This document shows positions 27,524-41,753 of a stretch of 64,000 bases of DNA, piece by piece (positions within the stretch are counted from its first letter, which is position 1; the number at the start of each line of letters is the position of its first letter). The notes beneath the pieces are model-generated. The model had not been told where the DNA came from. It did not search any database and saw nothing but the letters and a program-made list of their open reading frames with translations. The DNA is from an uncultured Anaerolineales bacterium (GTDB lineage Bacteria > Chloroflexota > Anaerolineae > CG2-30-64-16). Where the stretch lies: assembly GCA_964551735.1 (NCBI GenBank), contig CAZKEF010000014.1, forward strand, positions 54,820-118,819, in the 5' to 3' direction. Position numbers and translations under genes: made by a program.

Positions 27524-28804
27524 ATGACCACAAGAGACGACCTGCGCGCACGCCTGCGCATCCCCTATGACCGGCTGGACGCGATCAACGCGGTGCTGCT
27601 GGACCCGGACACGCGCGTGGTCAACGATCTACTAGACGTTGTCACCAAATATGGCACGCCGGAGCAGATCAACGCCAAGGCAGCCAAGGCGCGCGACTTC
27701 GACACCCTGATGACCCGGTTGGCCGAGCACGACTGCCGCTACCTGGATGACCTGATCTGGCTGCAAGGGCAGCGGGACGCTCGCGCGTTCATCAGCGAGG
27801 CCGAGTATCGCCGCATGGTGCTGGGCGACAAGGCCGAGGGGATGACTTTCAAGGATGAGTTCGCGGTCACGCTGGAGATCAGCGCTGCGCAGTATTTCCC
27901 CTGGATCATCGAGCAGGCCAGACAGGCCGTCGCCAACCGCGAGCTGATGCCCGGCCGCTTTATTCGCGTGCGCAAGATGCGCGAGTCGGAGGCGGACTGC
28001 GGCGACATGCTGGCGGTCGCGGCCGCGATGCAGATCATGGGCGCGTCCTACGTCGAGACGCTGGACACCAAAGGCACCGACGGCTCCAACGTGCACCTGG
28101 GCGGACCGGACACCATCACCGGCTATTTCGGCGGCATCGGCCAGCCCAACGAATATGTGCTGAAGTGGGTGGACGAATTCCTGTACTACTTCACTACCTA
28201 CGGCACGCCGCAAGTGCTCAACATCAACCCCGGCACGGTGCTGGCCGGCTATCTGCTCCACAAGCTGGGCATCAACAACGAGTTCAAGATCAGCGTCTAC
28301 ATGGGCAACGACAACCCCTACGCTGCGCTGTGGACCCTGCTGGCCGCCAAGTTGTTCTCCCGCGATGACGGCTCCAGCCCGCTGATCGGCTTTAACTGGA
28401 GCAACTCGGTCAAAAACGAGACCATCGAGATCACCGCGCAGTTCCGCAAAGCGCTGGGCTTTGAAGATGTGGTGCGCTTCGAACACCACATCACCGAAAC
28501 CTACAAACACATCGTGCGCCAGCCGTACAACCGGCGGGCCGAACTAGTGGCGCTGGCCGACCACGTGCCCAACATCTCGGCGAAGCACGAGGGCGGCGAC
28601 CCGGACGTCGAGGTGACGCGGGATCACCCGTCAGACATCCTGGAATACTTTCGCGCCCAGGACGAGATCGAAGCGGCCGGCGACATGCCGCTGCTGCTGC
28701 GGAATTACCTGGACAAACACGAGGCGCTCAACCGCACCGCCCGCGCGCTGACCGAACACGGCCTGAGCTTCATCGCCGCGCCGAAATTGCACCATCGTGG
28801 GTGA
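27524..28804 (+). CDS. Conserved hypothetical protein (no confident family assignment)
   Basis: 427-aa ORF with protein-like composition. GAGGAGTG SD 7 nt before the ATG at 27524. Confidence 0.4.
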   Translation: MTTRDDLRARLRIPYDRLDAINAVLLDPDTRVVNDLLDVVTKYGTPEQINAKAAKARDFDTLMTRLAEHDCRYLDDLIWLQGQRDARAFISEAEYRRMVLGDKAEGMTFKDEFAVTLEISAAQYFPWIIEQARQAVANRELMPGRFIRVRKMRESEADCGDMLAVAAAMQIMGASYVETLDTKGTDGSNVHLGGPDTITGYFGGIGQPNEYVLKWVDEFLYYFTTYGTPQVLNINPGTVLAGYLLHKLGINNEFKISVYMGNDNPYAALWTLLAAKLFSRDDGSSPLIGFNWSNSVKNETIEITAQFRKALGFEDVVRFEHHITETYKHIVRQPYNRRAELVALADHVPNISAKHEGGDPDVEVTRDHPSDILEYFRAQDEIEAAGDMPLLLRNYLDKHEALNRTARALTEHGLSFIAAPKLHHRG

Positions 28805-28834
28805 TGGGAGACTAACGATCTGGGCTTTGCGGTC

Positions 28835-28897
28835 CAGAATCGAGGCTTCAGCCGGTCTTTCAGGGCAACCCAAGCAGCCGGTTGAAGCCTCGACCCC
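28835..28897. repeat. Family-A REP-like element in a convergent intergenic region
   Basis: Sequence identity to the other copies. Confidence 0.65.
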
Positions 28898-28923
28898 CGA
28901 GCGCTATTGCCCCGCAACAACTG

Positions 28924-29958
28924 CTACGGCGCGACCGGCGGCGACCAGCCGCGCGTGGTCCAGGCGTGGGGGATGCCGCGGGCGTCCAGCGCGGCCTCGT
29001 AATCCTTCAAGTTAGCGGCCATCACCACATCCACCCCGGTGCGGATGATGCCATCCGTGGCGTTCATTTCAGCCAGCGCCATCGCCATCCCCTTTTCCGC
29101 CATCAGCTTGATGGTCTGCACCGACAGATAGCCCATGTCGTACTCACGCTGCGCGATGGTGGCGTCAATCACCCCTTCCTTGATGCCGTTGATGGTATCG
29201 GCGTTGGCGTCGAAGCAGACCACTTTGATCCGACCAGCGGCCCGCGCCTCCTTGATCGCCGTGGCCCAGGCCGAGCCGTTGTAGGCGTAGACGCCGAACG
29301 CGCCCGCCAGGTCCGGGTGGGCCGAGATCAGCGAGTTCGCCATCGCCAGCGCCGCGGCCGGATCCGCCTGGTCGTTCAGCGGCGGCAGGGGCACGATGCC
29401 TGTGCCGCCCACCGCATTCAGGAACCCCTCTGTGCGCTGGAGCGCGTTCAGCGCCGTGTCTGAGCCGCGCACGATGCCCACCTTACCGCCCGCGGGCAGC
29501 AGCCGGGCCAGCGTCTCGCCGGCCAGCCGGCCGGCCGCATAATTGTCGGTGCCAATGTAAACGCGGGAGACGCTACCTTCAACCGGCGGCGTGTCCAGGG
29601 TGATCACGATGATCCCGGCAGCCACAGCCTGGCGCATCAACCGCTCCAACGCCCCAGGGTCCGAGGGCGCAATCGCTATGCCGGTCACGCCTTGTGCGAT
29701 GTAGGTCTCCAGGGTCTGGATTTGAGCGGCCACATCCTCTTTGGGCGGCACAAACACGACAGTCTCCACACCCAACTCCCGCCCGGCCGCGATCACCCCC
29801 TGTTGCACGTTCGACCAGTACGGATTCACTGACTTGCCGATCACGACGACCTTGAGGGGATCTGGCGGCCCGCCGGATTGCCCCACCGGCACGCAGCCGG
29901 CCAGCGCCAACGCCACCAGCGCCACCAGAACCCTGTTGAACCACGCGTTCTTGATCAT
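28924..29958 (-). CDS. Sugar ABC transporter substrate-binding lipoprotein (CUT2/ribose-binding-like periplasmic binding protein)
   Basis: Signal peptide with lipobox LALAGC, then a type I PBP fold pattern. Confidence 0.7.
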
Positions 29959-30099
29959 GTCGCCTCCAGGCAGGAATATACCTCACAGGACCGAAATGAT
30001 GCAAGCAACCCAAGCCGGGACGATAACTTGAAGTTGCAGGGAGGACCTTGCTTGCGGTCGGCGGTCAGCGGTTAGCATTTCGGGCCGGCCCGCGCCCGA

Positions 30100-30128
30100 T
30101 TGCCTTTCACCGCTTGACCGACTATAAT
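30100..30128 (+). promoter_or_regulatory. Sigma70-like promoter: TTGCCT, 17-bp spacer, TATAAT, ending 7 nt before the response-regulator ATG (leaderless transcript likely)
   Basis: Hexamers and spacing seen directly. No SD between the -10 element and the ATG at 30136. Confidence 0.45.
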
Positions 30129-30135
30129 ATCGCTC

Positions 30136-31182
30136 ATGACAACCATCCGCGTCCTCCTGGCCGACGACCACGCGGTCGTGCGGTCGGGCATCCGCAACGC
30201 GCTGAACGACCTGCCGGGCCTGGTGGTGGTGGGCGAGGTGGGCGACGGTCGCGCGTTGGGGAGCGCCCTGGAGACGCTGCGGCCCGACCTGCTGCTGATT
30301 GACGTGACCATGCCGGATTTCGAACCGGTCGCGGCCATCCGCCAGATCCGGGCGCGCCACCCCGCGCTGAAGATCCTGATCGTCAGCGCCTACGACGATG
30401 ACGCCTACGTCCAGGGCTTGCTGGGCGTGGGGGTCAACGGCTACCACCTGAAAGATCAGCCACTCAGCGACCTGCGCCTGGCCGTGCAGCGCGTCCTGGC
30501 CGGCGAACGTTGGATCTCCAGCTCGCTCATCAGCAAGCTGCTTCACACTGCTGACGTGCCCGCGGCGGCCGCCTCGCTCACCAGCCGCCAACGCGAGCTC
30601 CTGCGCCTCCTGGTACAGGGTTATGACAATCAAAGCCTGGGCCGCGAGACCGGCCTCAGCGTCAAAACCATCGAAAACCACCTGACGCGCCTGTACCGTC
30701 AACTCAACGTGCAGAGCCGGCTGGAGGCGGTTCACTTTGCCAGCCAGCATCCTGATCTGCTGAGCCCAGTCCAGCCCGCGGCCGAAGGCAACCTAGCAGA
30801 TTTCCTGCCCCAGGGCCGGTTCACCGTGCTGCTGGTAGATGACAACCCGCGCTATCGCAGCCAGTTACAGCGCATGGTCAGCCGGACCAGCCCGCAGGCA
30901 GTGATTCACGAAGCCGGCAACACGGCCGAGGCCCTCCGGCTAGTCGAGCAGACGCAGCCCCAGCTTGTGCTGGTGGACGTGCTCCTGGGAGATGAAGACG
31001 GCATCCGCTGCGCCCGGCGCATCAAGGCGCTGCGGCCTCAAGCACGCATCATGCTGATCAGCGCGTATCCCGACCGGGAGTTCCGCCGCCTGGGCATGGA
31101 GGCTGGCGCCGCGGCTTTCCTGGACAAAAAAGACCTGGACGCGGCCACCGTGCGCCAGATGATCGAGGACATGCTGGCATGA
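30136..31182 (+). CDS. Response regulator with REC, LuxR-type HTH and a second REC domain
   Basis: REC1 has LLADDH, LLIDV and YHLK. The HTH is LTSRQRELLRLLVQGYDNQSLGRETGLSVKTIENHL. REC2 has LLVDDN, LVLVDV and FLDKK. Confidence 0.8.
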   Translation: MTTIRVLLADDHAVVRSGIRNALNDLPGLVVVGEVGDGRALGSALETLRPDLLLIDVTMPDFEPVAAIRQIRARHPALKILIVSAYDDDAYVQGLLGVGVNGYHLKDQPLSDLRLAVQRVLAGERWISSSLISKLLHTADVPAAAASLTSRQRELLRLLVQGYDNQSLGRETGLSVKTIENHLTRLYRQLNVQSRLEAVHFASQHPDLLSPVQPAAEGNLADFLPQGRFTVLLVDDNPRYRSQLQRMVSRTSPQAVIHEAGNTAEALRLVEQTQPQLVLVDVLLGDEDGIRCARRIKALRPQARIMLISAYPDREFRRLGMEAGAAAFLDKKDLDAATVRQMIEDMLA

Positions 31183-32183
31183 AACAGGTGCTTGAAACCA
31201 CCAGACCTGGCCGCACGGGGGGCGCTAAACCGGAAAGGCCCTGGAAACGCCTGGTGAGTGAGCAGCTCTTCATTTCTGTCACCCTCTGCCTGATCGTCTT
31301 CGCCTTTCTTAGCCTCAACACGGCCACCTTCCTCAGCCGCAACAACATGGCCAGCCTGGCCCGGAACTTCTCATGGTTGGCGATCGTAGCGTTCGGCCAG
31401 AGCCTGGTGATCATTATCGGTGGGATTGACCTTTCAGTGGGCGCGACCATGGCACTGGCCGGGCTGGCCGCAGCCCAGGGGATGCAATGGGGGCTGCCCA
31501 TACCGCTCGCCATCTTGCTGGGGCTGCTGGTGGGCGGCGTGATGGGCTGGATCAACGGGATGCTGATCGCGCGCATCCGCCTGCCCGCCTTCATCGCCAC
31601 CCTGGGCACCATGAGCATCGCGCGCGGCGGCGCTTTCGGTCTCACCCAGGGTTGGTCCATCACCAACCTGCCGGAGACATTCCTGCGCCTGGGCCAGGCC
31701 GATGTGACCCTGGGGCCGCTGTCCCTCTCAATGCCTTTCGTGATTGCCCTACTGATCGCGCTCCTGGTCTGGCTGTTGCTGCGCCACACCGTCCTCGGCG
31801 CCGACATCTACGCCATGAGCAGCGGCGAGCGTGCGCTCCGGGCCACGGGCGTCAATGTGGTGCGGTTGAAGGTGGTTGTCTACACCCTATGTGGGTTGCT
31901 GGCGGCCATCGGCGGGCTGCTGATCACGGCACGGCTGGGCGTAGCGGCCCCCGCCGCAGCGGTTGGCTACGAAGTGGACGTCGTCGCGGCCGCGGTCATC
32001 GGCGGCACCAGCCTCTTTGGCGGGGTCGGCAGCACCATGGGCGTGCTGTTGGGCGCAGCCATCATCCAGATGTTGAACAACGGGCTGGTGCTGCTGGGCC
32101 TCCCCACCTATTGGCAAACCGCGGCCATCGGCGCCATGATCCTGATGAGCATCCTGCTGGACTATTGGCGCAGGCGGCAATAA
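31179..32183 (+). CDS. Sugar ABC transporter permease (RbsC/branched-sugar permease family)
   Basis: Multiple TM segments and the family pattern GGIDLSVGATMALAG. ATGA overlap with the response-regulator gene. Confidence 0.8.
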   Translation: MKQVLETTRPGRTGGAKPERPWKRLVSEQLFISVTLCLIVFAFLSLNTATFLSRNNMASLARNFSWLAIVAFGQSLVIIIGGIDLSVGATMALAGLAAAQGMQWGLPIPLAILLGLLVGGVMGWINGMLIARIRLPAFIATLGTMSIARGGAFGLTQGWSITNLPETFLRLGQADVTLGPLSLSMPFVIALLIALLVWLLLRHTVLGADIYAMSSGERALRATGVNVVRLKVVVYTLCGLLAAIGGLLITARLGVAAPAAAVGYEVDVVAAAVIGGTSLFGGVGSTMGVLLGAAIIQMLNNGLVLLGLPTYWQTAAIGAMILMSILLDYWRRRQ

Positions 32184-32195
32184 GGGGCGTCACGC

Positions 32196-33785
32196 ATGGA
32201 ACCGTTGCTGCGAGCCGTCAGCCTCTCCCTCACACTAGGCACGCTGCCGGCGCTCCGCCAGGTGAGCCTGGAGATTTTCCCCGGCGAAGTCGTCGGGCTG
32301 GCGGGCCAGAGCGGCGCCGGCAAGACCGCGCTCGCCATGCTGTTAGCCGGCGCCTATACGCCCACCGCGGGCGAGCTCTACCTGGCCGGCCGGCGGCTGC
32401 GTCCCCCTTTCCGTGCACGGAGCCTGGGCATCGAGGTGATCCACCAGCAGCCCGAAATGGCCGAGGGGTTGGACATCAGCCGCAACCTCTTTTTGGGCAG
32501 CGAGCTCGGCTGGCCGAAGGGAGCCGGCCGCTGGCTCAGGGTTCTGCAGCGCCGCCGGATGGACGAAGAGGCGGCGCACATCCTGGCGCGCCTGGGCATG
32601 TCGTGCCCCTTCCTACACGAGCGGGTGGCAAACCTGTCAAGCGAGCAACGCCAGTTGATCGCCATCGCCCGCGCGCTGACGCGGCCGGCACGGCTTGTCA
32701 TCATTGATGACCCCAGCTTGCTGCTCGGTTATCCCGCCCAACAAAGACTGCTGGGGCTCATCCGCGAGTGGCAACAACAGGGCACAGCCGTGTTCTTTGC
32801 CAGCGACAATGTGGACCTGCTCATGGCCGTGACCGACCGCATCCTGGTGCTGCGCCACGGCCGCTGTGAGGTTGAATTCCGCACCGACGCGGCCACCCGT
32901 GAGAGCATTCTCAGCGCTACGGTCGGCGCAGCCGATCAGCAACAGCTCACCCCCATCATCTGGGCGCTGGACAGTTATTACCGGGCGCGCGAACAGGCCG
33001 AAAAGCTGCACCAGCGGCAGGCGTTGTTGAAGCACGAGTTGAGCGCTGACGGCGAAGTGGATCGCCAACTCATTGACCACCTGGCCGATCAGATCACCGC
33101 GCTGGATCGCGCCAACCTCGCGCTGCAAGACGCACAGCGGCGGCTGCTGACCGAGTTGGAGCAAGAGCGCAAGCAGTTAGCGCGCGAGATTCATGACCAG
33201 GTGATCCAAGATCTGCTCGGAGTCGGCTACCAACTGGAAGAGCTGGAAGCCGAGGCGGGCGCGACCCCGGTGCTGCGCGCGGAGCTGCAAACCGTGCGTG
33301 ACAGCGTGCGCGAACTGGTGGGCGACCTCCGGCACATCTGCGGCGCGCTGCGGCCGCCGACGATTGACAGCCTGGGCCTGGGCTCGGCGCTGCAATCCTA
33401 CGCGCACGAGTGGCGCAGGCGAACCGGCATCGAGCTGACCCTCAACCTGGACCCCAACCTGGGACGCCTGCCCGAAGCTACCGAGCTCTCCATCTTCCGC
33501 ATCGTGCAAGAAGGGCTCAACAACGTGCGCAAACACGCCGCCGCGACGACGGTGACGATCAGCCTGGCGCATACCTCCCCCCGGCGGCTGATGCTGACCA
33601 TCGCGGATGACGGCCGCGGGCTAGGGGCAGACTTCGACCTGGCTGACCTTTCCACCCAGGGACATTACGGTGTGTTGGGCGTCACCGAGCGGGTGGCGCT
33701 GCTGGGCGGGCAGTGGCGTATCCACAATCGCCCCGAAGGCGGGACGTTGATCCAGGTGGAGATCCCACACCCGCGCGTGAGTTAG
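32196..33785 (+). CDS. Fusion protein: ABC-type nucleotide-binding domain (degenerate motifs), coiled coil, then HisKA_3/HATPase_c sensor histidine kinase
   Basis: Walker A GQSGAGKT and Q-loop HQQ are present. The signature is LSSEQ rather than LSGGQ, Walker B is IIDDP rather than DE, and the H-loop His is missing (FASDN). The kinase half has H-box LAREIHDQ, N-box QEGLNNVRKHA, G1 ADDGRGL and G2 GVLGVTERVALLGG. Confidence 0.75.
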   Translation: MEPLLRAVSLSLTLGTLPALRQVSLEIFPGEVVGLAGQSGAGKTALAMLLAGAYTPTAGELYLAGRRLRPPFRARSLGIEVIHQQPEMAEGLDISRNLFLGSELGWPKGAGRWLRVLQRRRMDEEAAHILARLGMSCPFLHERVANLSSEQRQLIAIARALTRPARLVIIDDPSLLLGYPAQQRLLGLIREWQQQGTAVFFASDNVDLLMAVTDRILVLRHGRCEVEFRTDAATRESILSATVGAADQQQLTPIIWALDSYYRAREQAEKLHQRQALLKHELSADGEVDRQLIDHLADQITALDRANLALQDAQRRLLTELEQERKQLAREIHDQVIQDLLGVGYQLEELEAEAGATPVLRAELQTVRDSVRELVGDLRHICGALRPPTIDSLGLGSALQSYAHEWRRRTGIELTLNLDPNLGRLPEATELSIFRIVQEGLNNVRKHAAATTVTISLAHTSPRRLMLTIADDGRGLGADFDLADLSTQGHYGVLGVTERVALLGGQWRIHNRPEGGTLIQVEIPHPRVS

Positions 33786-33817
33786 GGGATTTCCCCCAGT
33801 GCGGAGGGGGGAAATCC
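33786..33817 (+). terminator. Hairpin GGGATTTCCCCC-agtgcgga-GGGGGGAAATCC immediately after the NBD-HK stop
   Basis: Seen directly. Confidence 0.45.
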
Positions 33818-34011
33818 GATACTGCTGGCGCCATTTACCTGTATCCAAACGGGGTTAGCTGTGGTATACTGGCATTTGTCGTTTATTTCACCCCAATGAC
33901 AACATCGCAGTAAGAACACATGGAGGTGCGCTGCTGACTCAAAACTGCACAGAACATTCCCCACACATTCCATTCACGCATTCCGTTCACTTACCCAAAG
34001 GGAGGATCACA

Positions 34012-36201
34012 GTGAGAACCAATCTGTCACGTTTCATCATGATCGTCGTCGCCCTGGCGATGATCGCCGCATTCCTGACTGGCTGCCCCAGCCCTGCGAC
34101 CCCAGCCCCGGCAACGACCGGCGGCCAGACCGAGGCAGGCAAGGTGCCGGTAGGCATCGTGCTGCCGACCAAGGACGAACCCCGCTGGATCCAGGACCAG
34201 ACCCGCTTCCAGGATGCACTGAAGGCCGCGGGCTACGACGTCCAGATCCTGTTCAGCCAGGGCGATTCCGCCAAAGAGAAGGCCAACGTCGAGGCGCTGA
34301 TCAGCCAGGGCATCCAGGTCTTGGTCATCTGCCCGCATGATGGCACAGCGGCGGCGGCCGCCGCGGATGCTGCCCGCGCTGCGGGCGTGAAGGTCATCTC
34401 CTACGACCGCTTGATCCGCGACACCGACGCGGTAGACTACTACGTCACCTTCGACTCGGTCGCGGTCGGCGAGGCCTGGGGCCAGTACCTGGCCGACATG
34501 GCCGGCGCCACCAAGGGCAACAACCTCTACCTCTACGCCGGCGCGGCTTCCGACAACAACGCCTTCCTCTTCTTCGAGGGTGCCTGGAACAAGCTGCAGC
34601 CCAAGATCGCCGACGGCACCTTCGTCATCAAGAACTCCAGTGAAGCCGTCGCCCTGCAAGGCAAGGCCACGCTGACCCGCGACGAGATGGCCAAGATCAT
34701 CGGCCAGGTCACCACCAACTGGGATTTCGCCGTCGCCAAGAACCTCGCCGAGGCTAACCTCACCGCGGCCAAGCCCGAGGATAAGGGTACCGTCTTCATC
34801 GCCGCGCCCAACGACGGCACCGCCCGCTCCATTGCCGATGCCTTCGCCGCCGACAAGGAAGTCACCAAGTACTACATCACCGGCCAGGACGCCGAGAAAG
34901 CCTCCGTCCAATACATCATTGACGGCAAGCAGTCCATGACCGTCCTCAAGGACGTCCGCACCCTGGTCAGCGACGCCATCACCGCGGCCGTCGCCTACCT
35001 CAAGGGCGGCACGCCTGAGAAGACCACCACCTACAACAACGGCAAGATTGACGTGCCAGCCAAACCGTCCGCCATCGTCACCGTCACCCAGGACAACGTC
35101 AAGGCCGCCATCGTTGACTCCGGCTACTACCCGGCCAGCGACTTCCCGACCCTGGGCGCGGCCGCCCCTGCCCCGACCGGCAAGGTGCCGGTAGGCATCG
35201 TGCTGCCGACCAAGGACGAACCCCGCTGGATCCAGGACCAGACCCGCTTCCAGGATGCACTGAAGGCCGCGGGCTACGACGTCCAGATCCTGTTCAGCCA
35301 GGGCGATTCCGCCAAAGAGAAGGCCAACGTCGAGGCGCTGATCAGCCAGGGCATCCAGGTCTTGGTCATCTGCCCGCATGATGGCACAGCGGCGGCGGCC
35401 GCCGCGGATGCTGCCCGCGCTGCGGGCGTGAAGGTCATCTCCTACGACCGCTTGATCCGCGACACCGACGCGGTAGACTACTACGTCACCTTCGACTCGG
35501 TCGCGGTCGGCGAGGCCTGGGGCCAGTACCTGGCCGACATGGCCGGCGCCACCAAGGGCAACAACCTCTACCTCTACGCCGGCGCGGCTTCCGACAACAA
35601 CGCCTTCCTCTTCTTCGAGGGTGCCTGGAACAAGCTGCAGCCCAAGATCGCCGACGGCACCTTCGTCATCAAGAACTCCAGTGAAGCCGTCGCCCTGCAA
35701 GGCAAGGCCACGCTGACCCGCGACGAGATGGCCAAGATCATCGGCCAGGTCACCACCAACTGGGATTTCGCCGTCGCCAAGAACCTCGCCGAGGCTAACC
35801 TCACCGCGGCCAAGCCCGAGGATAAGGGTACCGTCTTCATCGCCGCGCCCAACGACGGCACCGCCCGCTCCATTGCCGATGCCTTCGCCGCCGACAAGGA
35901 AGTCACCAAGTACTACATCACCGGCCAGGACGCCGAGAAAGCCTCCGTCCAATACATCATTGACGGCAAGCAGTCCATGACCGTCCTCAAGGACGTCCGC
36001 ACCCTGGTCAGCGACGCCATCACCGCGGCCGTCGCCTACCTCAAGGGCGGCACGCCTGAGAAGACCACCACCTACAACAACGGCAAGATTGACGTGCCAG
36101 CCAAACCGTCCGCCATCGTCACCGTCACCCAGGACAACGTCAAGGCCGCCATCGTTGACTCCGGCTACTACCCGGCCAGCGACTTCCCGACCCTGAAGTA
36201 A
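34012..36201 (+). CDS. Sugar ABC substrate-binding lipoprotein with two identical tandem SBP domains (perfect 1041-bp in-frame duplication)
   Basis: GTG start after AAGGGAGG. Signal peptide with lipobox LTGC. Residues ~44-390 and ~391-729 are identical, matching nucleotides 34138-35155 and 35179-36196. Confidence 0.7.
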   Translation: MRTNLSRFIMIVVALAMIAAFLTGCPSPATPAPATTGGQTEAGKVPVGIVLPTKDEPRWIQDQTRFQDALKAAGYDVQILFSQGDSAKEKANVEALISQGIQVLVICPHDGTAAAAAADAARAAGVKVISYDRLIRDTDAVDYYVTFDSVAVGEAWGQYLADMAGATKGNNLYLYAGAASDNNAFLFFEGAWNKLQPKIADGTFVIKNSSEAVALQGKATLTRDEMAKIIGQVTTNWDFAVAKNLAEANLTAAKPEDKGTVFIAAPNDGTARSIADAFAADKEVTKYYITGQDAEKASVQYIIDGKQSMTVLKDVRTLVSDAITAAVAYLKGGTPEKTTTYNNGKIDVPAKPSAIVTVTQDNVKAAIVDSGYYPASDFPTLGAAAPAPTGKVPVGIVLPTKDEPRWIQDQTRFQDALKAAGYDVQILFSQGDSAKEKANVEALISQGIQVLVICPHDGTAAAAAADAARAAGVKVISYDRLIRDTDAVDYYVTFDSVAVGEAWGQYLADMAGATKGNNLYLYAGAASDNNAFLFFEGAWNKLQPKIADGTFVIKNSSEAVALQGKATLTRDEMAKIIGQVTTNWDFAVAKNLAEANLTAAKPEDKGTVFIAAPNDGTARSIADAFAADKEVTKYYITGQDAEKASVQYIIDGKQSMTVLKDVRTLVSDAITAAVAYLKGGTPEKTTTYNNGKIDVPAKPSAIVTVTQDNVKAAIVDSGYYPASDFPTLK
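34138..36196 (+). repeat. Perfect tandem direct repeat, 2 x 1018 bp joined by a 23-bp linker (period 1041 bp = 347 codons)
   Basis: Identical ORF-track entries 34533-34868 and 35574-35909, and identical nucleotide lines offset by 1041 bp. Confidence 0.85.
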
Positions 36202-36300
36202 GCGCCTGTAGCCAGTTCAGCCAGGAATAGTGATGGTGATGCAAGCCATCACTATTCCTGTGTCTTCTCGCCATTTCCTACTTCACCAGGAGATCTTGCC

Positions 36301-38862
36301 ATGCCAAACCAGCCTCCCATCTTGGAGATGAAGCACATTAGCAAATCTTTCCCCGGCGTGAAAGCGTTGAACGACGTGACCTTTCAAGTCGCCGCGGGTG
36401 AGATTCACTGCCTGGTCGGCGAAAATGGCGCCGGTAAGTCTACACTCATGAAGGTGCTGAGCGGTGTCTACCCCTATGGCATGTACACGGGTGATATCCT
36501 CTTCAACGGGGAAGTGCAGAAGTTTTCCGGCATCAGCGACAGTGAGAGGGTCGGCATTGCCATCATCTATCAGGAGCTGGCGCTGGTCCCTGAGATGACG
36601 GTCTATGAGAACATCTTCCTCGGCAATGAGATCCGAAAAGGCCTGACCATTGATTGGAACGAAACCATCAAGCGGGCGACGGAAGCACTCAAAAAGGTCA
36701 GGCTTGATGTCAACCCCGAGACCAAAGTCAAACATCTGGGCGTGGGCAAGCAGCAACTAATCGAAATTGCCAAGGCGCTGAGCAAGGATGTGAAACTGCT
36801 CATCCTGGATGAGCCGACTGCGGCACTGAACGAGGATGACAGCGAGAACCTGTTGAACCTGATCCGCGAGCTCAAAGGGCACGGCGTCTCGTGCGTCATG
36901 ATTTCGCACAAACTGAAAGAGGTTATCGCCATTGCAGATACGGTCACCGTTCTACGCGATGGCCAGACCATCTGTACGCTGGATGCCCACAAGGGCGAGG
37001 TGTCGGAACATGTGTTGATCAAACACATGGTTGGCCGCGAAATCAACAACATCTATCCGACCAGGCAGCGCAATCCGTTCAAAGCCACTGGGGGCGCCGT
37101 CGAAGCGGCGAAAGCGGCCGGGGTGAAGGTCATTTCGTATGATCGCCTGATCACCAACACCAAAGTCGTGGACTATTTTGTGACCTTTGACAGCATTGCG
37201 GTCGGCGTGCAACAGGCGCGCTACCTGGTTGACCGTGCACAGGGCAAGGGCAACCCGTTGTACCTCTATGCCGGCGCCCCGTCAGACAACAACGCCTTCC
37301 TGTTCCTCCAGGGCGCGTGGGGCGTGTTGCAGCCCAAGATTGCGGATGGCACGTTCGTCATCAAGAATTCGAGCCAGGCCAGTAAGCTCCAGGCAAACGT
37401 CGCGCTGACGCGTGACCAGGCCAGCGCGATCTTCGGACAGATCACCACCAACTGGGATCGCCATACTGCCCACAACCTGGCGCAGTTCAACCTGGCCGGC
37501 GTCACGGCGGCTGATAAGGGCAACGTCTTTGTTCTTGCGCCCAACGATAACACCGCGCGGGCAATCGGCGACGTATTCGCTGCCGATCCGGACGTCAAGA
37601 GCTACGTGATCACCGGTATGGATGCCGAGGAGGCCTCCCTCCCTTACATCCTCGAAGGCAAGCAGTCCATGACCGTTTTCAAGGATGTCCGCACACTGGT
37701 GCAGGCCGCGGTTGACGCGGCGGTCGCCCTGCTTAAGGGTCAGGCGCCCGCGACCAATGGCGTCTTCAACAACGGCGCCATGGACGTCCCGGCATTGCAG
37801 TCTCCGGTCATCGCCGTGGACCAGACGAACGCGAAAGCCATGCTGGTTGACTCTGGTTATTACAAAGTCAGCGATGCGGCCGGCGCGGCCCAGAAGTCCG
37901 CTGTCGCAGGCAACGTTGCCATCGGGGTCGTCCTCCCGACCGCCGACGAGCCGCGCTGGCTCCAGGATCGGGCCCGTTTCCAGGCCGCGTTCAAAGCAGC
38001 CGGGTACAATGCCGAAATCCTGTTTAGCCAGGGCAATGCCGCCAAGGAGAAAGAGAACATCGAGACGCTGGTGGCGAAGGGTATCAAAGTCCTTATCATC
38101 TGTCCGCAGGGCGGCGGCGAAGTGGTGCTCGAGGTCAAGAACTGGAACGCCTACGACCCCGCCGTGGGCCGGGAGATCCTCAAGGATGTAAACTTCAACG
38201 TCAAGAAGGGCGAGATCGTCGGCTTTGCGGGCCTGATGGGGTCCGGCCGCACCGAGCTGGCCTTGAGCCTGTTCGGGAATCCGAAAAACTATCGGACCCG
38301 GGGCGAGATTTACATCCAGGGCACGAAGCAGCACTTCACCCATCCGCACGAGGCTATCGCCGCGGGCATCGCGTATGCGACCGAGGACCGCAAGGCGGCT
38401 GGCCTGATCCTGATCCAGGATGTGAAACAAAACACCACGTTGGCGAACTTGCAGGAGATCGCCCGGCGTGGCGTCGTGGACGGCAATGCCGAGATCAAGG
38501 TGGCGGAAGAATACCGGAGCTCCCTTAACATCAAGACGCCGTCCATCGTGCAAAAGGTGGGCAACCTGAGCGGCGGCAACCAGCAAAAGGTCCAGATTGC
38601 GAAGTGGCTGTTCGTGAAGCCCGACCTGCTCATCCTGGACGAGCCGACGCGCGGCATTGATGTCGGCGCCAAGTATGAGATTTACACCATCATGACCCGG
38701 CTGGTGGAGCAGGGCATGAGCATCATCATGATCTCGTCCGAGTTGCCCGAGGTCCTGGGCATGAGCGATCGCGTGTATATCGTCTCGGCCGGTCGGATCA
38801 CCGGCGAGCTGCCGATCGAGGAAGCGACGCAAGAGAAGATCATGCAACTGGCCACAAGTTAA
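36301..38862 (+). CDS. CUT2-type sugar ABC ATPase (two NBDs, RbsA/XylG-like) with a ~340-aa circularly permuted SBP-like domain inserted between NBD1 and NBD2
   Basis: NBD1 (aa 1-261) and NBD2 (aa ~593-853) are complete: Walker A GENGAGKST and GLMGSGRTEL, signatures LGVGKQQ and LSGGNQQ, Walker B LILDEPT twice. The segment between them (GVKVISYDRLITNTKVVDYFVTFD ... KVLIICPQGG) is ~70% identical to the upstream SBP and is ordered C-half then N-half. Confidence 0.7.
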   Translation: MPNQPPILEMKHISKSFPGVKALNDVTFQVAAGEIHCLVGENGAGKSTLMKVLSGVYPYGMYTGDILFNGEVQKFSGISDSERVGIAIIYQELALVPEMTVYENIFLGNEIRKGLTIDWNETIKRATEALKKVRLDVNPETKVKHLGVGKQQLIEIAKALSKDVKLLILDEPTAALNEDDSENLLNLIRELKGHGVSCVMISHKLKEVIAIADTVTVLRDGQTICTLDAHKGEVSEHVLIKHMVGREINNIYPTRQRNPFKATGGAVEAAKAAGVKVISYDRLITNTKVVDYFVTFDSIAVGVQQARYLVDRAQGKGNPLYLYAGAPSDNNAFLFLQGAWGVLQPKIADGTFVIKNSSQASKLQANVALTRDQASAIFGQITTNWDRHTAHNLAQFNLAGVTAADKGNVFVLAPNDNTARAIGDVFAADPDVKSYVITGMDAEEASLPYILEGKQSMTVFKDVRTLVQAAVDAAVALLKGQAPATNGVFNNGAMDVPALQSPVIAVDQTNAKAMLVDSGYYKVSDAAGAAQKSAVAGNVAIGVVLPTADEPRWLQDRARFQAAFKAAGYNAEILFSQGNAAKEKENIETLVAKGIKVLIICPQGGGEVVLEVKNWNAYDPAVGREILKDVNFNVKKGEIVGFAGLMGSGRTELALSLFGNPKNYRTRGEIYIQGTKQHFTHPHEAIAAGIAYATEDRKAAGLILIQDVKQNTTLANLQEIARRGVVDGNAEIKVAEEYRSSLNIKTPSIVQKVGNLSGGNQQKVQIAKWLFVKPDLLILDEPTRGIDVGAKYEIYTIMTRLVEQGMSIIMISSELPEVLGMSDRVYIVSAGRITGELPIEEATQEKIMQLATS

Positions 38863-38934
38863 GCAGGAACAAGCTCACAGCGGGTGGCGCGATTATCGGC
38901 CCCCGGCAGAATTCATGTTACCAGGAGGATTCCG

Positions 38935-40170
38935 ATGAGTTCACAGCAAGCTAGTCCGGCCCAGGCCAAGGGCGGCACGGCTCAAATGTCGTTCATGCAG
39001 AACCTGCAGAAAATGATCCAGTCGAACATCCGCGACTACGGCATGTATATCGCCCTGGTCGTGATCATGTTGTTCTTCACCTGGCGGACGGACGGCCTGT
39101 TCCTTACGTCGCGGAACATCTCTAACCTGCTGGATCAGACAGGTTACATCGCCGTCATCGCGGTCGGCATGACGCTGGTCATCGTCATCCGGCACATTGA
39201 CCTGTCGGTCGGCTTTCTTTCCGGATTCCTCGCCGCAATAGCGGCTATCCTCATGAAATCCTTTGGCGTGCCCGCCTTTCTCGTCATCCCGCTGGCGTTG
39301 GCGCTCGGCATCGCGGCAGGCGCCTTAACTGCCTTCATGGTGGCGCAACTGGGCATCCCGGCCTTTGTCGCAACCCTGGGCGGGTGGCTGGTCTACCGCG
39401 GGCTCCTGCTGCTCGTCCTGGCGGGCACGGGCACGATCATCATTGACAGTAAGTTCTTCAACGACATCGGTAATGGCTACATTCCCGATATTCCCGGCCT
39501 CAATTTCCTGCCGGAAGTGCATAAGCTGACGCTGATCCTCGGGTTGCTGGCCATCGTCCTGTTCATCTTCAGCCAGATCAACAGCCGCCGCCAGAAGGCC
39601 GCGTACAACTTCGAAGTGCTGCCGATGAACCTGTTCATCCTGAAGCTGGTCTTCCTGGCGGCCGTGCTCGGCGCTGTGACCTGGATCCTGGCGGGCTACA
39701 ACGGCCTCTCCTGGACGGTTGTGATTATGTTGATCGTAGTCGGCATCTATCACTTCATCACCACACAGACCGTGCTGGGCCGGCACATCTATGCGATCGG
39801 CGGCAACCCCGAGGCGGCCCAGTTGAGCGGCATCAACGTTAGGAAGATGACCTACCTGGTTTTCGCCTCGATGGGCATGCTGGCTGCCTTGGGCGGGATC
39901 ATGTTCGCCTCCCGCCTGCGCTCCGCCACGCCGCAAGCCGGCACCCTGTTGGAATTGGATGCCATCGCGGCCGCCTTCATCGGCGGTGCATCCCCTGCCG
40001 GCGGCATCGGCACGATCTTGGGCTCGCTGATCGGCGCGCTGGTCTACATGTCGCTGACCAACGGCATGAACCTGATGGGCACGGATATCGCCCTCCAGTA
40101 CGTCGTCCGCGGCTTGGTGCTGGTGCTGGCGGTAATCTTCGATGTGACGACGCGGCGCGGCAGCAGGTAG
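38935..40170 (+). CDS. Sugar ABC transporter permease (RbsC/XylH/MglC family)
   Basis: AGGAGG SD before the ATG. Ten predicted TM segments and the family pattern. Confidence 0.8.
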   Translation: MSSQQASPAQAKGGTAQMSFMQNLQKMIQSNIRDYGMYIALVVIMLFFTWRTDGLFLTSRNISNLLDQTGYIAVIAVGMTLVIVIRHIDLSVGFLSGFLAAIAAILMKSFGVPAFLVIPLALALGIAAGALTAFMVAQLGIPAFVATLGGWLVYRGLLLLVLAGTGTIIIDSKFFNDIGNGYIPDIPGLNFLPEVHKLTLILGLLAIVLFIFSQINSRRQKAAYNFEVLPMNLFILKLVFLAAVLGAVTWILAGYNGLSWTVVIMLIVVGIYHFITTQTVLGRHIYAIGGNPEAAQLSGINVRKMTYLVFASMGMLAALGGIMFASRLRSATPQAGTLLELDAIAAAFIGGASPAGGIGTILGSLIGALVYMSLTNGMNLMGTDIALQYVVRGLVLVLAVIFDVTTRRGSR

Positions 40171-40299
40171 GCATTCACACCATCGGATAAACCAAGCGAG
40201 GCGGTCTTATCGGCCGCCTCGCTGCGCGTAACGAGGCATCGCCACATAGGTGGATTCAGACCAGTGTCCATGTCGCGGGCGACACAAGCGGAGATGAAA

Positions 40300-40520
40300 A
40301 TGCAACGATCCGCGTTCATCCGCGCTCGTCCGCGTCCGATTTTTGGGTTAGTTTTTCATGCCGCGGGCGACGCCGAGGCTGGTGAGAATGTTCGTAATAA
40401 CGACTTCAGTCGTTCGCCGCGGGCCACGGCGACTGAAGTCGCTACTACGAACCGATCCGTTTTCAGGGCAGGGGCGGGTTTTCTGCGCGCTCATCGGTGG
40501 TCTGCCGTTGCCCCCAACTA
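40300..40520. repeat. Repeat nest in a 390-nt convergent intergenic region: family-D 30-mer (40308-40340; second copy 41879-41913), family B (40399-40450), family C (40468-40520)
   Basis: Direct sequence comparison. Confidence 0.55.
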
Positions 40521-40562
40521 TGCGGGTAACCAGGGTGCGTGGTATTGCCGGCAACCCCGCCC

Positions 40563-41753
40563 CTACTTCACCCACAACTCCCGCTGCGGCTCGCCCAGGT
40601 AGGCCGCGCCGTCCTCCGTCACCAGCACATCCTCCTCCAGGCCGATGTAGCCGTATCCCGGCACGGCCAGCCCAGGCTCCACGGTGTAGACGTGCCCCGC
40701 CTCCAGCAGGCGTTTGGGGGTGTCGCCGTAGCGCTCCCAGAGGGGGCCCAGCAGCGGGCCGCCGTCGTGGGCGTTGCGGCCCAAGCCGTGGCCGGTGGCG
40801 TATTTGTACTCTGGGTAGCCCGCGCCTGTGACCACGCCCCGCGCGGCCGCGTCCACTTCCAGGCCGGTCACGCCCGGCCGCATGGTCGCCACGGCCGCTT
40901 CGACCGCAGCTCGCACTGTGGCGAACCCGCGGCGCACCGGCTCCGGCGGCGCAGCCTCGCCCGACCGCAGCAGGTATACCACCCGCTGGATGTCGGAGCA
41001 ATACGCATCTTGCCGTACACCGAAATCCATGTGGACGATATGGCCCGGCGCCAGCACGATATCGCCCGGTGCACCGTGCCCCACTGCCGAATCCGGCCCC
41101 GAGTTCACCGCGGGGCAGCCGTCATCGTCCCACGCCGCGGCCACGCCCAACTCGGCCATCTGCCGGTGCATGAAGTCGCCCACCTGCCGCTCGGTGACGC
41201 CGGGACGGATGAAGTTGAAGGCCGCCTCATAGATGCGCACCGTCGTCGCCACCGCGGCGCGGATCGCAGCTACCTCGGCCGGTGTCTTGCGCGACCGCAG
41301 CGCGGCGATGATCCCCTCGGCCGAGATCAGCCGGTCGGCGTAGGGTGTGCCGGCCAGGTAACCCTGCAAGAGCTGATGCATCCCGTGAGTAAGACCATCC
41401 GCGTAAACGTCGTCTGTAGAAGTGTTAATCGCTATTTGCGCCGGGTCAAGTTGGGTCAGAACCTCCAGCAATGCTGGACGGATCGCCTCATCATAGGGGA
41501 TGACCATGTCATAGAGCCCTTTGCCCCGCACCGCGTCCGCTTCATAGCGACCGACGATGGCGATGCGCTGGCCGCGGGCCGTGAACATCAGGGCGCTCTG
41601 CCAGGTCAAGGTCTCCGGGCCGAAGATCAACGGCAGCACGGGGTCGGCCTGGGCAGAGGTTTCGCGCACAAACGTCAGCCAGGCGTCAACACCGGCTTTG
41701 TGCAGGATGCCGTTGGCTTGTTGCGCCTTTTCGTGGGTGATGGAAGATGTCAC
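40563..41753 (-). CDS. M24-family metallopeptidase (Xaa-Pro aminopeptidase/creatinase-like)
   Basis: Creatinase-like N-terminal domain plus a pita-bread C-terminal domain with metal ligands in HVYTVEPGLAV and GLEEDVLVTEDG. Confidence 0.7.
   Translation of the reverse strand: MTSSITHEKAQQANGILHKAGVDAWLTFVRETSAQADPVLPLIFGPETLTWQSALMFTARGQRIAIVGRYEADAVRGKGLYDMVIPYDEAIRPALLEVLTQLDPAQIAINTSTDDVYADGLTHGMHQLLQGYLAGTPYADRLISAEGIIAALRSRKTPAEVAAIRAAVATTVRIYEAAFNFIRPGVTERQVGDFMHRQMAELGVAAAWDDDGCPAVNSGPDSAVGHGAPGDIVLAPGHIVHMDFGVRQDAYCSDIQRVVYLLRSGEAAPPEPVRRGFATVRAAVEAAVATMRPGVTGLEVDAAARGVVTGAGYPEYKYATGHGLGRNAHDGGPLLGPLWERYGDTPKRLLEAGHVYTVEPGLAVPGYGYIGLEEDVLVTEDGAAYLGEPQRELWVK

Follow-up and report, generated by a model that had tools for sequence, protein, structure and literature searches.

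A 64,000-nucleotide (nt) stretch of DNA from an uncultured Anaerolineales bacterium (contig CAZKEF010000014.1, positions 54,820 to 118,819; referred to below as the window) contains a cluster of four genes, one of which encodes an ATP-binding cassette (ABC) domain and a histidine kinase in a single chain. All four open reading frames (ORFs) were present in the ORF list as described in the original prediction, which had been made from the DNA sequence alone. A sensor substrate-binding protein (SBP) is encoded on the minus strand (28924 to 29958), and the plus strand encodes a response regulator (30136 to 31182), an RbsC-type permease (31179 to 32183), and the fusion kinase, a soluble polypeptide of 529 amino acids (aa) (32196 to 33785). 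Downstream on the same strand lies a ChvE/GguA/GguB-like monosaccharide ABC transporter operon (34012 to 40170), which is the probable target of regulation. Transporter-coupled two-component sensing is a known kind of system; what appears to be new here is the fusion of an ABC nucleotide-binding domain (NBD) to the kinase.

An ABC domain and a histidine kinase in one chain

Profile searches of the window proteins against Pfam and NCBIfam, with curated cutoffs, placed three Pfam domains in the 529-aa protein, in agreement with the original prediction: ABC_tran at aa 20 to 173 (89 bits versus a cutoff of 25; E = 5.6e-25), HisKA_3 at aa 324 to 388 (51 bits versus 24), and HATPase_c at aa 430 to 526 (39.2 bits versus 26.4). 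The degenerate NBD (32196 to 32924, plus strand; aa 1 to 243) contains the Walker A motif GQSGAGKT, the Q-loop glutamine Q84, the signature LSSEQ, the Walker B motif IIDD (within IIDDP), the D-loop SLLL, and SDN at the H-loop position (within FFASDN). It is followed by a helical linker (32928 to 33155, plus strand; aa 245 to 320) and a kinase core (33165 to 33773, plus strand), in which H333 lies in HDQVIQ, within the H-box LAREIHDQ, ahead of a HATPase_c domain with N, G1, and G2 boxes. The translation contains every motif quoted in the original prediction and, as stated there, no H-loop histidine. The histidine followed by DxxxQ, together with the three boxes, identifies the C-terminal half as a HisKA_3 kinase of the NarX/UhpB/LiaS type.

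Among the NCBIfam profiles, NBD1 of the CUT2 sugar ATPases was closest to the N-terminal half (RbsA residues 1 to 197 at 2.7e-40, and also AraG, XylG, and YtfR), while the C-terminal half gave partial matches to MctS, UhpB, NarX, and LiaS-type kinases. Since all of these matches fall far under the equivalog cutoffs, the whole protein lies outside every curated family. It is not a NarX or NarQ ortholog, given that these profiles scored 92 bits against a cutoff of 578 and 77 bits against 553, respectively, with the alignment limited to the kinase core. The protein has no transmembrane segment (maximum 19-aa Kyte-Doolittle score, 1.17), and the NBD is therefore its sole possible input domain.

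An AlphaFold2 monomer model, for which 48 family members served as input, was confident for the NBD at aa 1 to 243 (predicted local distance difference test [pLDDT] values of 80 to 94). Two long helices followed at aa 245 to 282 and 289 to 353, the second of which continues into the H-box; their pLDDT was low, as expected when a dimeric coiled coil is modeled as a monomer. Helix 2 of the dimerization and histidine phosphotransfer (DHp) domain spanned aa 358 to 385 and was followed by a standard catalytic and ATP-binding domain. When the model was compared with the PDB using Foldseek, the NBD alone was matched (TTHA1159, the MacB NBD, and MalK; TM-score of about 0.8), and none of the matches listed spanned both the NBD and the kinase halves. 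The profile score, the fold, and the Walker A and Q-loop motifs thus place the N-terminal half among the ABC NBDs (Pfam PF00005).

The state of each NBD motif was tallied in 43 family members. The Walker A lysine (43/43), the Q-loop glutamine (42/43), and the Walker B aspartate (43/43) are retained. The catalytic position after the Walker B aspartate is Asp in 26 members, Glu in 16, and Asn in 1; the second glycine of the signature is replaced by glutamate in 41 of the 43; the D-loop is degenerate (xLL); and the H-loop histidine is found in none of the members, with Asp or Asn in its place in 38. The window NBD likewise does not have the catalytic set of Walker B Asp-Glu, H-loop His, D-loop SALD, and signature LSGGQ. 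Selection therefore acts on nucleotide binding and on the permease-facing Q-loop rather than on the residues for hydrolysis or for communication between NBDs. It is reasonable to propose from these motifs that the NBD binds ATP and hydrolyzes it poorly, mainly because of the H-loop loss. The replacement of the catalytic glutamate, to which the original prediction had also pointed, holds for the clade of the window but not for the 16 members that retain this residue.

The same residues bear on whether the SBP, permease, and NBD-kinase might instead form an active, low-rate importer that also signals, as has been proposed for the SLC5-kinase CbrA. The parts of an importer are complete, with an SBP, a permease, and two NBDs per kinase dimer, and the catalytic glutamate is kept in 16 of 43 members, the aspartate found elsewhere still being acidic. 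Such transport activity nevertheless seems improbable, given the universal absence of the H-loop histidine, the degenerate D-loop, and the Gly-to-Glu change in nearly all signatures, as well as the full-size importer for related sugars that is encoded next door.

The most conserved stretch of the linker is the junction motif LTPIIWALDSYY (32946 to 32981, plus strand; aa 251 to 262), which directly follows the NBD. Across 48 sequences, L251, T252, P253, W256, A257, L258, Y261, and Y262 of this stretch are invariant, as are H333, D334, Q338, N443, D471, G473, and G475 of the kinase. With the motor domain and the kinase in a single chain whose junction is invariant, closure of the NBDs would be coupled mechanically to the output of the kinase.

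The architecture recurs widely among relatives. In a search of 5.8 billion proteins, the best 120 clusters were 65 to 100% identical to the window protein over its full length, and 118 of these 120 carried the same three Pfam domains. At least 118 clusters contained an uninterrupted ORF of 528 to 550 aa, from NCBI, ENA, JGI, and Logan assemblies, and the named sources among the best clusters were metagenome-assembled genomes (MAGs) of Anaerolineae. Among species-representative genomes, a scan yielded 45 loci, whose neighborhoods were taken as 8 kb to either side; 42 of these held near-full-length copies from independent MAGs at 43 to 77% identity. The genomes were labeled Anaerolineales, Caldilineae/Caldilineaceae, Thermoflexia, Leptolinea, Anaerolinea, or Chloroflexota, with one labeled Desulfobacterales. 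Since few representatives were left after clustering at 50%, the family is compact and lineage restricted. In the databases, its members carry no label more specific than "ATP-binding cassette domain-containing protein" or "signal transduction histidine kinase." In one representative, P0124, Walker A is entirely lost, while the remaining architecture is kept.

The original prediction would fail if an error in sequencing or assembly had fused separate ATPase and kinase genes. Nothing pointed to such a false join, and the 118 or more clusters, the 42 genomes, and the invariant junction residues effectively rule this artifact out.

Partner genes and an altered permease loop

In the window and in 22 other loci, whose kinases are 58 to 77% identical to that of the window, the genes are ordered regulator, permease, kinase (layout A), and the kinase gene starts 6 to 20 nt after the permease gene in most of the 22. 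Of the window genes originally described as translationally coupled, only those of the regulator and the permease overlap, by 4 nt (ATGA, 31179 to 31182); the kinase gene starts 12 nt after the permease stop codon and is thus close without overlapping. Three layout A loci (L012, L013, and L015) have an additional SBP-like gene between permease and kinase. In a further 11 loci, with kinases at 43 to 57% identity, the regulator gene is adjacent and divergent and the ChvE/GguAB-like operon follows the kinase gene (layout B). Genes for CUT2-type ABC transporters adjoin the kinase gene in every locus with context.

The RbsC-type permease (31179 to 32183, plus strand) is a 334-aa BPD_transp_2 protein with about 10 hydrophobic segments, and it matches the NCBIfam RbsC profile over its full length (1e-63), under the equivalog cutoff. 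Among the cytoplasmic loops of RbsC/GguB-type permeases, the most conserved one corresponds to the EAA coupling loop. All 7 neighboring transporting paralogs and all 13 GguB-like permeases have the canonical loop IYA(I/V)GGNxEA(A/T)xLSGI, in which GGNxEAAxLSGI occupies the position of aa 214 to 225 of the window permease. The window permease departs from this canonical CUT2 loop, having YAMSSGERALRATGV instead; its altered EAA-like loop, SSGERALRATGV, lies at 31818 to 31853 (plus strand). The form x-S-(G/S)-E-(R/Q)-A-L-x-x-S-G-V is shared by all 23 permeases whose genes lie directly upstream of an NBD-kinase gene, that of the window included, whereas the permease of the regulated downstream operon retains the canonical loop. 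Family-specific recoding of this kind is expected if the sensor permeases have another NBD partner and are insulated from canonical ATPases, and the loop sequences suggest that it forms a private docking interface between permease and NBD. A sensing role predicts that signaling would be lost if the loop were GGNPEAAQLSGI.

These parts are homologous to those of RbsABC-type CUT2 importers: the SBP belongs to Peripla_BP_4, and the permease and NBD match RbsC and NBD1 of RbsA, respectively. The cluster thus has the SBP and BPD_transp_2 permease of a CUT2 system, but in place of an ATPase of about 500 aa with two NBDs, one of them complete, it has a single NBD that is without the H-loop histidine and D-loop and that carries a kinase, in addition to the changed permease loop.

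The divergently encoded SBP (28924 to 29958, minus strand) is, as originally described, a lipoprotein; it has 344 aa, a Peripla_BP_4 domain, and the lipobox LAGC. An ortholog at 61 to 74% identity adjoins the regulator gene in 14 of the layout A loci. Its nearest solved relatives are the sugar-binding proteins 2h3h, 2qvc, and 3c6q (E = 5e-83 to 2h3h), which we take to be the glucose/xylose-binding protein of Thermotoga maritima. It also matches XylFII (5xsj; E = 9e-31), a dedicated signaling SBP of the LytS system (PMC8050422).

The 348-aa response regulator (30136 to 31182, plus strand) comprises a first receiver domain (REC1; nt 30151 to 30486), a GerE/LuxR helix-turn-helix (HTH) domain (nt 30574 to 30741), and a second receiver (REC2; nt 30823 to 31170). 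Pfam accordingly reports two Response_reg domains plus GerE, which bears out the extra C-terminal receiver noted originally. The phospho-acceptor residue sets are complete in both receivers, and the acidic pair (DD), the phospho-acceptor D, the S/T, and the K are kept in at least 90% of 36 orthologs. The N-terminal receiver with its D-D-D-T/S-K residues and the GerE HTH are those of a NarL/FixJ regulator, from which the protein differs by its additional receiver; REC2 is complete and conserved in 36 of 36 orthologs and could act as a phosphate sink, a second input, or a dimerization switch. The regulator is the constant partner of the kinase: the two genes are linked in nearly every locus that extends far enough to show it, and the two families are equally abundant and occur on the same contigs.

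The linkage of these genes also speaks to the idea that the NBD is a soluble nucleotide sensor, that is, an ATP/ADP-dependent dimerization switch for energy charge with no membrane partner, in which case the linkage to transporter genes would reflect the regulon only. Such a switch would fit the strictly conserved P-loop beside degenerate hydrolytic residues, the absence of a transmembrane segment, and the existence of NBD-GAF-GAF-kinase and NBD-MalT-TPR-LuxR relatives with no adjacent permeases on the short contigs available. We nevertheless give it little credence, since the Q-loop glutamine, which contacts coupling helices, is kept in 42 of 43 members, more than half of the loci show tight operon coupling to a permease whose loop covaries, every locus with context adjoins CUT2 ABC genes, and P0124 keeps the architecture without a P-loop.

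A recurrent palindrome and the neighboring sugar transport operon

A promoter-like site precedes the regulator gene (30100 to 30135, plus strand), with a -35 element TTGCCT (30100 to 30105) and a -10 element TATAAT (30123 to 30128) that is followed 7 nt later by the ATG (30136). The TATAAT box (TGnTATAAT in relatives) ends 7 to 8 nt short of the ATG, both in the window and in 17 of 18 aligned relatives, which implies that the mRNA of the regulator operon is leaderless.

Copies of a palindrome, TAGGGGGAWWTCCCCTA, precede both the regulator gene and the neighboring sugar ABC operon. In the window, the predicted operator (33783 to 33817) consists of the palindrome TAGGGGATTTCCCCCAG (33783 to 33799), which overlaps the kinase stop codon, and the half-site GGGGGGAAATCC (33806 to 33817). 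About 50 bp past it lies an extended -10 element of the downstream operon, TGTGGTATACT (33860 to 33870, plus strand), with no recognizable -35 element; in L002, L006, L009, and L019, TGnTATA(C/A/T)T is spaced similarly from the palindrome. The same arrangement 3' of the kinase gene was found in 17 loci, namely, the window and 16 others of layouts A and B. In 18 layout A loci, the palindrome is also found 72 or 94 to 111 bp upstream of the regulator start, followed by the TGnTATAAT box.

Enrichment of the palindrome was assessed in 673 kb of loci plus the window, relative to 30 Markov shuffles. The strict core GGGG[AT]2-4CCCC occurred 46 times versus 6.2 expected (shuffle maximum, 11), and 38 of the 46 copies fell into two promoter classes, ahead of the regulator gene or ahead of the neighboring ABC operon. 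A looser pattern, AGGGG-N2-5-CCCCT with one mismatch, was not enriched (85 occurrences versus 84 in shuffles), and the operator claim therefore rests on the strict core with its A/T spacer and on positional conservation. These comparisons support, short of proof, control of the downstream ABC operon by the regulator through the palindrome, and thereby the operon's designation as the regulatory target in the original prediction.

The palindrome was also considered as an intrinsic terminator and rejected, because its stem is only 4 to 5 bp, no T run follows, and the motif also occurs in divergent regulator promoters; a terminator scan found no terminator-like site between the kinase gene and the downstream SBP gene. 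An Rfam scan of 28000 to 41000 found no known RNA family. Elsewhere in the window, the strict core is also matched at 665 and at 9761; the match at 665 lies within a long ORF without TA flanks and was treated as due to chance. Additional copies of TAGGGG(A/T)nCCCCTA are present at L001 11397, L004 15242, L018 11492, and L003 7975, either downstream of the regulated ABC operon or ahead of other SBP genes, so the regulon may include additional sugar-uptake operons.

The downstream operon encodes, all on the plus strand, a fused tandem double SBP (34012 to 36201; a 729-aa ChvE-like lipoprotein), a GguA-like ATPase with an SBP-derived insert (36301 to 38862; 853 aa), and a GguB-like permease (38884 to 40170). 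Its ChvE/GguA/GguB-like assignment is of the multiple-monosaccharide type and falls just under the NCBIfam cutoffs. The original prediction had called the operon paralogous to the sensor genes; the transporter families are indeed the same, but the proteins are only about 27 to 33% identical to the sensor components. An operon of the window type, at 60 to 90% identity, is syntenic with the kinase gene in 15 loci, and in six others (L005, L007, L014, L017, L021, and L040) a divergently transcribed Rbs-like operon replaces it, whose permease shares about 50% identity with the sensor permease in most of them and about 38% in L007. Given the homology of the sensor SBP and the multiple-monosaccharide type of the operon, a monosaccharide signal is likely, and we infer by homology that the ligand would be a glucose/xylose-type sugar.

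The two halves of the double SBP in the window contain an exact repeat of 1,017 bp (34138 to 35154 and 35179 to 36195; 100% identity). Double SBPs of about 730 aa, likewise fused, are also encoded in L006, L027, L028, L033, L036, and L038, and the halves within one genome are 87 to 99% identical, being more alike than orthologs between genomes. This pattern suggests concerted evolution by gene conversion, with the perfect identity in the window possibly an assembly effect.

The insert in the GguA-like ATPase (about nt 37066 to 38115) lies in frame between NBD1 and NBD2 and consists of SBP residues 125 to 377 followed by residues 42 to 111. It is thus a circularly permuted binding-protein domain, 63 to 64% identical to the neighboring ChvE-like SBP, and it resembles a slice spanning the junction of a tandem SBP-SBP gene. 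Equivalent in-frame inserts are present in the ATPases of L001 (7360 to 9918), L004 (11135 to 13693), and L035 (8002 to 10559), and its occurrence in three independent MAGs argues that the insert is not a misassembly. One possibility is that it serves as a cytoplasmic sugar-binding regulatory domain, as in trans-inhibition. Representatives of 820 to 860 aa were considered as further NBD-SBP-NBD ATPases and discarded, since Pfam identified them as ordinary ATPase-permease fusions or NBD-PAS kinases.

A proposed sugar receptor and its relation to known systems

We favor, with modest confidence, a model in which the window genes encode a transporter-derived sugar receptor, made up of the SBP, a permease dimer, and an NBD-kinase dimer, that is wired to a two-component system. 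An extracellular monosaccharide would be bound by the lipoprotein SBP, and the loaded SBP would dock on a homodimer of the RbsC-type permease. The soluble kinase, as a DHp-mediated homodimer, would provide both of the NBDs needed by the permease dimer, giving a proposed stoichiometry of two permeases, two NBD-kinases, and one SBP. The NBDs would retain ATP binding in spite of the lost H-loop histidine, D-loop, and, in this clade, catalytic glutamate; because the hydrolytic residues are lost, SBP-driven closing and opening of the NBDs would be read out rather than used for transport. By way of the junction LTPIIWALDSYY and then the helical linker, this movement would reach the HisKA_3 DHp domain and switch the balance between kinase and phosphatase activities. 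The phosphorylated REC-LuxR-REC regulator would then bind the palindrome TAGGGGGAWWTCCCCTA and activate the adjacent ChvE/GguAB-like operon and, in most relatives, its own operon as well.

Several observations weigh against this model. For the 11 deeper members with layout B, neither a dedicated permease nor a dedicated SBP is encoded within 8 kb, and in four loci (L022, L025, L041, and L044; layout C) the kinase gene ends or follows a complete SBP-ATPase-permease operon. About a third of the family is thus without an adjacent dedicated permease and SBP, so a dedicated receptor is not universal. The sensor transporter proposed originally does have comparative support from the absence of any other input domain in the kinase, the gene linkage, the permease loop, the H-loop loss, and the palindrome ahead of the downstream operon, and the independent NBD-PAS kinases described below lend it convergent support. 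The catalytic glutamate of 16 members implies that some may hydrolyze ATP, the glutamate in the signature could hinder formation of the ATP-sandwich dimer, and P0124 manages without Walker A. Relatives in which an NBD is joined to a GAF-containing kinase have no nearby transporter gene, on short contigs only; for one of them, P0210, the contig is 5.5 kb long and holds no transporter genes. Finally, the regulator promoter of the window (29959 to 30135) contains no match to the palindrome, and autoregulation may therefore have been lost in this genome.

Layouts B and C are the loci for which an alternative based on activity sensing is more likely. By this account, the permease of the neighboring working importer is what the kinase NBD docks on or competes for, unless the NBD pairs with the importer's ATPase instead; the kinase would then report transport activity, much as in Bce-type flux sensing or Pst/PhoU/PhoR, and the RbsC-type permease would be a later add-on. 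The 11 layout B loci, with only a regulator, a kinase, and a ChvE/Ggu-like operon and no private permease, fit this account well, as do L022 and L044, in which the kinase gene directly follows that of the transporter's permease. In L022 (3074 to 9632), a divergent regulator gene is followed by genes for an SBP, a single-NBD CUT2-type ATPase (255 aa), the permease, and the NBD-kinase, and mixed pairs of ATPase and kinase NBDs on one permease dimer are a possibility there. An independent family of NBD-PAS kinases, described below, includes an NBD that is a 69% identical copy of NBD1 of the neighboring ATPase. Against these observations stand the separate upstream permease with its distinct, conserved EAA-like loop in the window and 22 other loci, the low identity between the window NBD and the downstream ATPase (25 to 33%), and the canonical loop of the regulated permease. 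For the window, activity sensing is unlikely in our view, while remaining a more serious contender than the soluble or transporting alternatives.

How a transporter passes information to a kinase is an active question that is mechanistically unresolved. In the Bce, Pst/PhoU/PhoR, DctA/DcuS, and UhpC/UhpB systems, the partners are separate proteins whose contact is hard to define. In UhpC-UhpB-UhpA, a transporter homolog that has become a receptor induces a transporter by signaling to a HisKA_3 kinase and a regulator of the NarL type. The kinase half of the window protein has UhpB among its best NCBIfam matches; in contrast to the window system, UhpC belongs to the major facilitator superfamily, UhpB has its own membrane domain, and neither a fusion nor ABC parts are involved. 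In MalK-MalT, an ABC NBD controls a LuxR-family activator according to transporter activity; unlike the fusion kinase, MalK is a working ATPase that binds MalT reversibly through a C-terminal regulatory domain, and no kinase takes part. PstSCAB-PhoU-PhoR conveys the state of an SBP-dependent ABC importer from its NBD side to a cytoplasmic kinase domain. This relay differs in being noncovalent and bridged by PhoU, with a fully active transporter and a membrane-anchored PhoR. The Bce partners are likewise separate polypeptides, with contact made via membrane helices of an FtsX-type permease; this permease has a large extracellular domain, and the kinase is of the intramembrane-sensing type with two transmembrane helices. 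The window system differs from Bce in that its permease belongs to BPD_transp_2 and its kinase, without transmembrane segments, is fused to the NBD; Bce signaling needs ATP hydrolysis (flux sensing), and BceAB is an exporter-type resistance pump with no SBP. The dependence of the kinase on an ABC transporter for sensing would be shared, given that BceS cannot sense alone and the transporter is the true sensor (PMC9169098, PMC3023708). A structure of the Pst transporter has been described (PMC12976172).

The SLC5-STAC-histidine kinases CbrA and CrbS (PMC7096432, PMC5715377) resemble the window protein in that a transporter module is covalently fused as the kinase input. There, however, the fused part is the membrane domain of a secondary transporter, whereas the window protein has no SLC5 domain and the fused part is the cytoplasmic motor domain of an ABC system whose membrane subunit is separate. 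XylFII-LytS-YesN of Clostridium beijerinckii (PDB 5XSJ; PMC8050422) shares an SBP of the same Pfam family, which there serves a two-component system that turns on the operon of a CUT2 sugar transporter. LytS, however, is an integral-membrane kinase whose own extracytoplasmic domain binds the SBP, while the window kinase is soluble, with a permease and the fused NBD in between, and has neither the transmembrane segment nor the extracytoplasmic domain of LytS/LuxQ/TorS-type kinases. The regulators also differ, being AraC type in the one system and NarL type with a second receiver in the other. No account of an NBD-kinase fusion emerged from full-text literature searches, and a review of SBP signaling (PMC8050422) does not mention ATPase or NBD components.

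If the receptor model is correct, it would add an SBP-to-permease-to-NBD-to-kinase route that is missing from current catalogs of SBP signaling, and the fusion would be a tractable structural model of how the ABC cycle can be read out. The receptor model would also account for the control of sugar uptake in Anaerolineae, a group of sugar fermenters that is abundant but little studied. With its private coupling loop and its defined operator, the system could moreover be used in synthetic biology as a modular, orthogonal sugar sensor.

The same degenerate NBD, with its TPxxWAxxSY junction, is also joined to other outputs. The output is GAF-HisKA-HATPase_c in P0168 and GAF-GAF-HisKA-HATPase_c in P0210 (L049, 1865 to 4588). 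In P0149, it is a MalT-type TPR region plus a LuxR HTH; this one-component regulator, with its NBD, MalT-like TPR, and LuxR HTH, is in effect a one-chain counterpart of MalK-MalT. We propose, tentatively and at slightly less than an even chance, that the crippled NBD with its TPxxWAxxSY junction is a portable input module that plugs signaling proteins into ABC permeases, that the window system is a dedicated, insulated, nontransporting receptor of this kind, and that it represents the first covalent link between the ABC cycle and a two-component system.

A second, independent family has the architecture NBD-PAS-PAS-HisKA_3 (P0144, P0160, P0162, and P0280 to P0285; loci L053, 141 to 9188, and L051, 98 to 3351). 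The gene order in L053 is REC-GerE regulator, NBD-PAS-kinase, SBP, ATPase, permease, permease. The NBD of the L053 kinase is 69% identical to NBD1 of the neighboring ATPase and nearly identical to it through Walker A and the Q-loop, and yet its H-loop histidine has become arginine and its D-loop has changed from SALS to QVLP. Since equal catalytic losses are seen in a recent, independent copy, NBDs in such kinases appear to be selected to dock and to bind nucleotide rather than to hydrolyze it. The origin of the L053 NBD as a copy also makes docking on the regulated transporter a live alternative for those family members that have no private permease.

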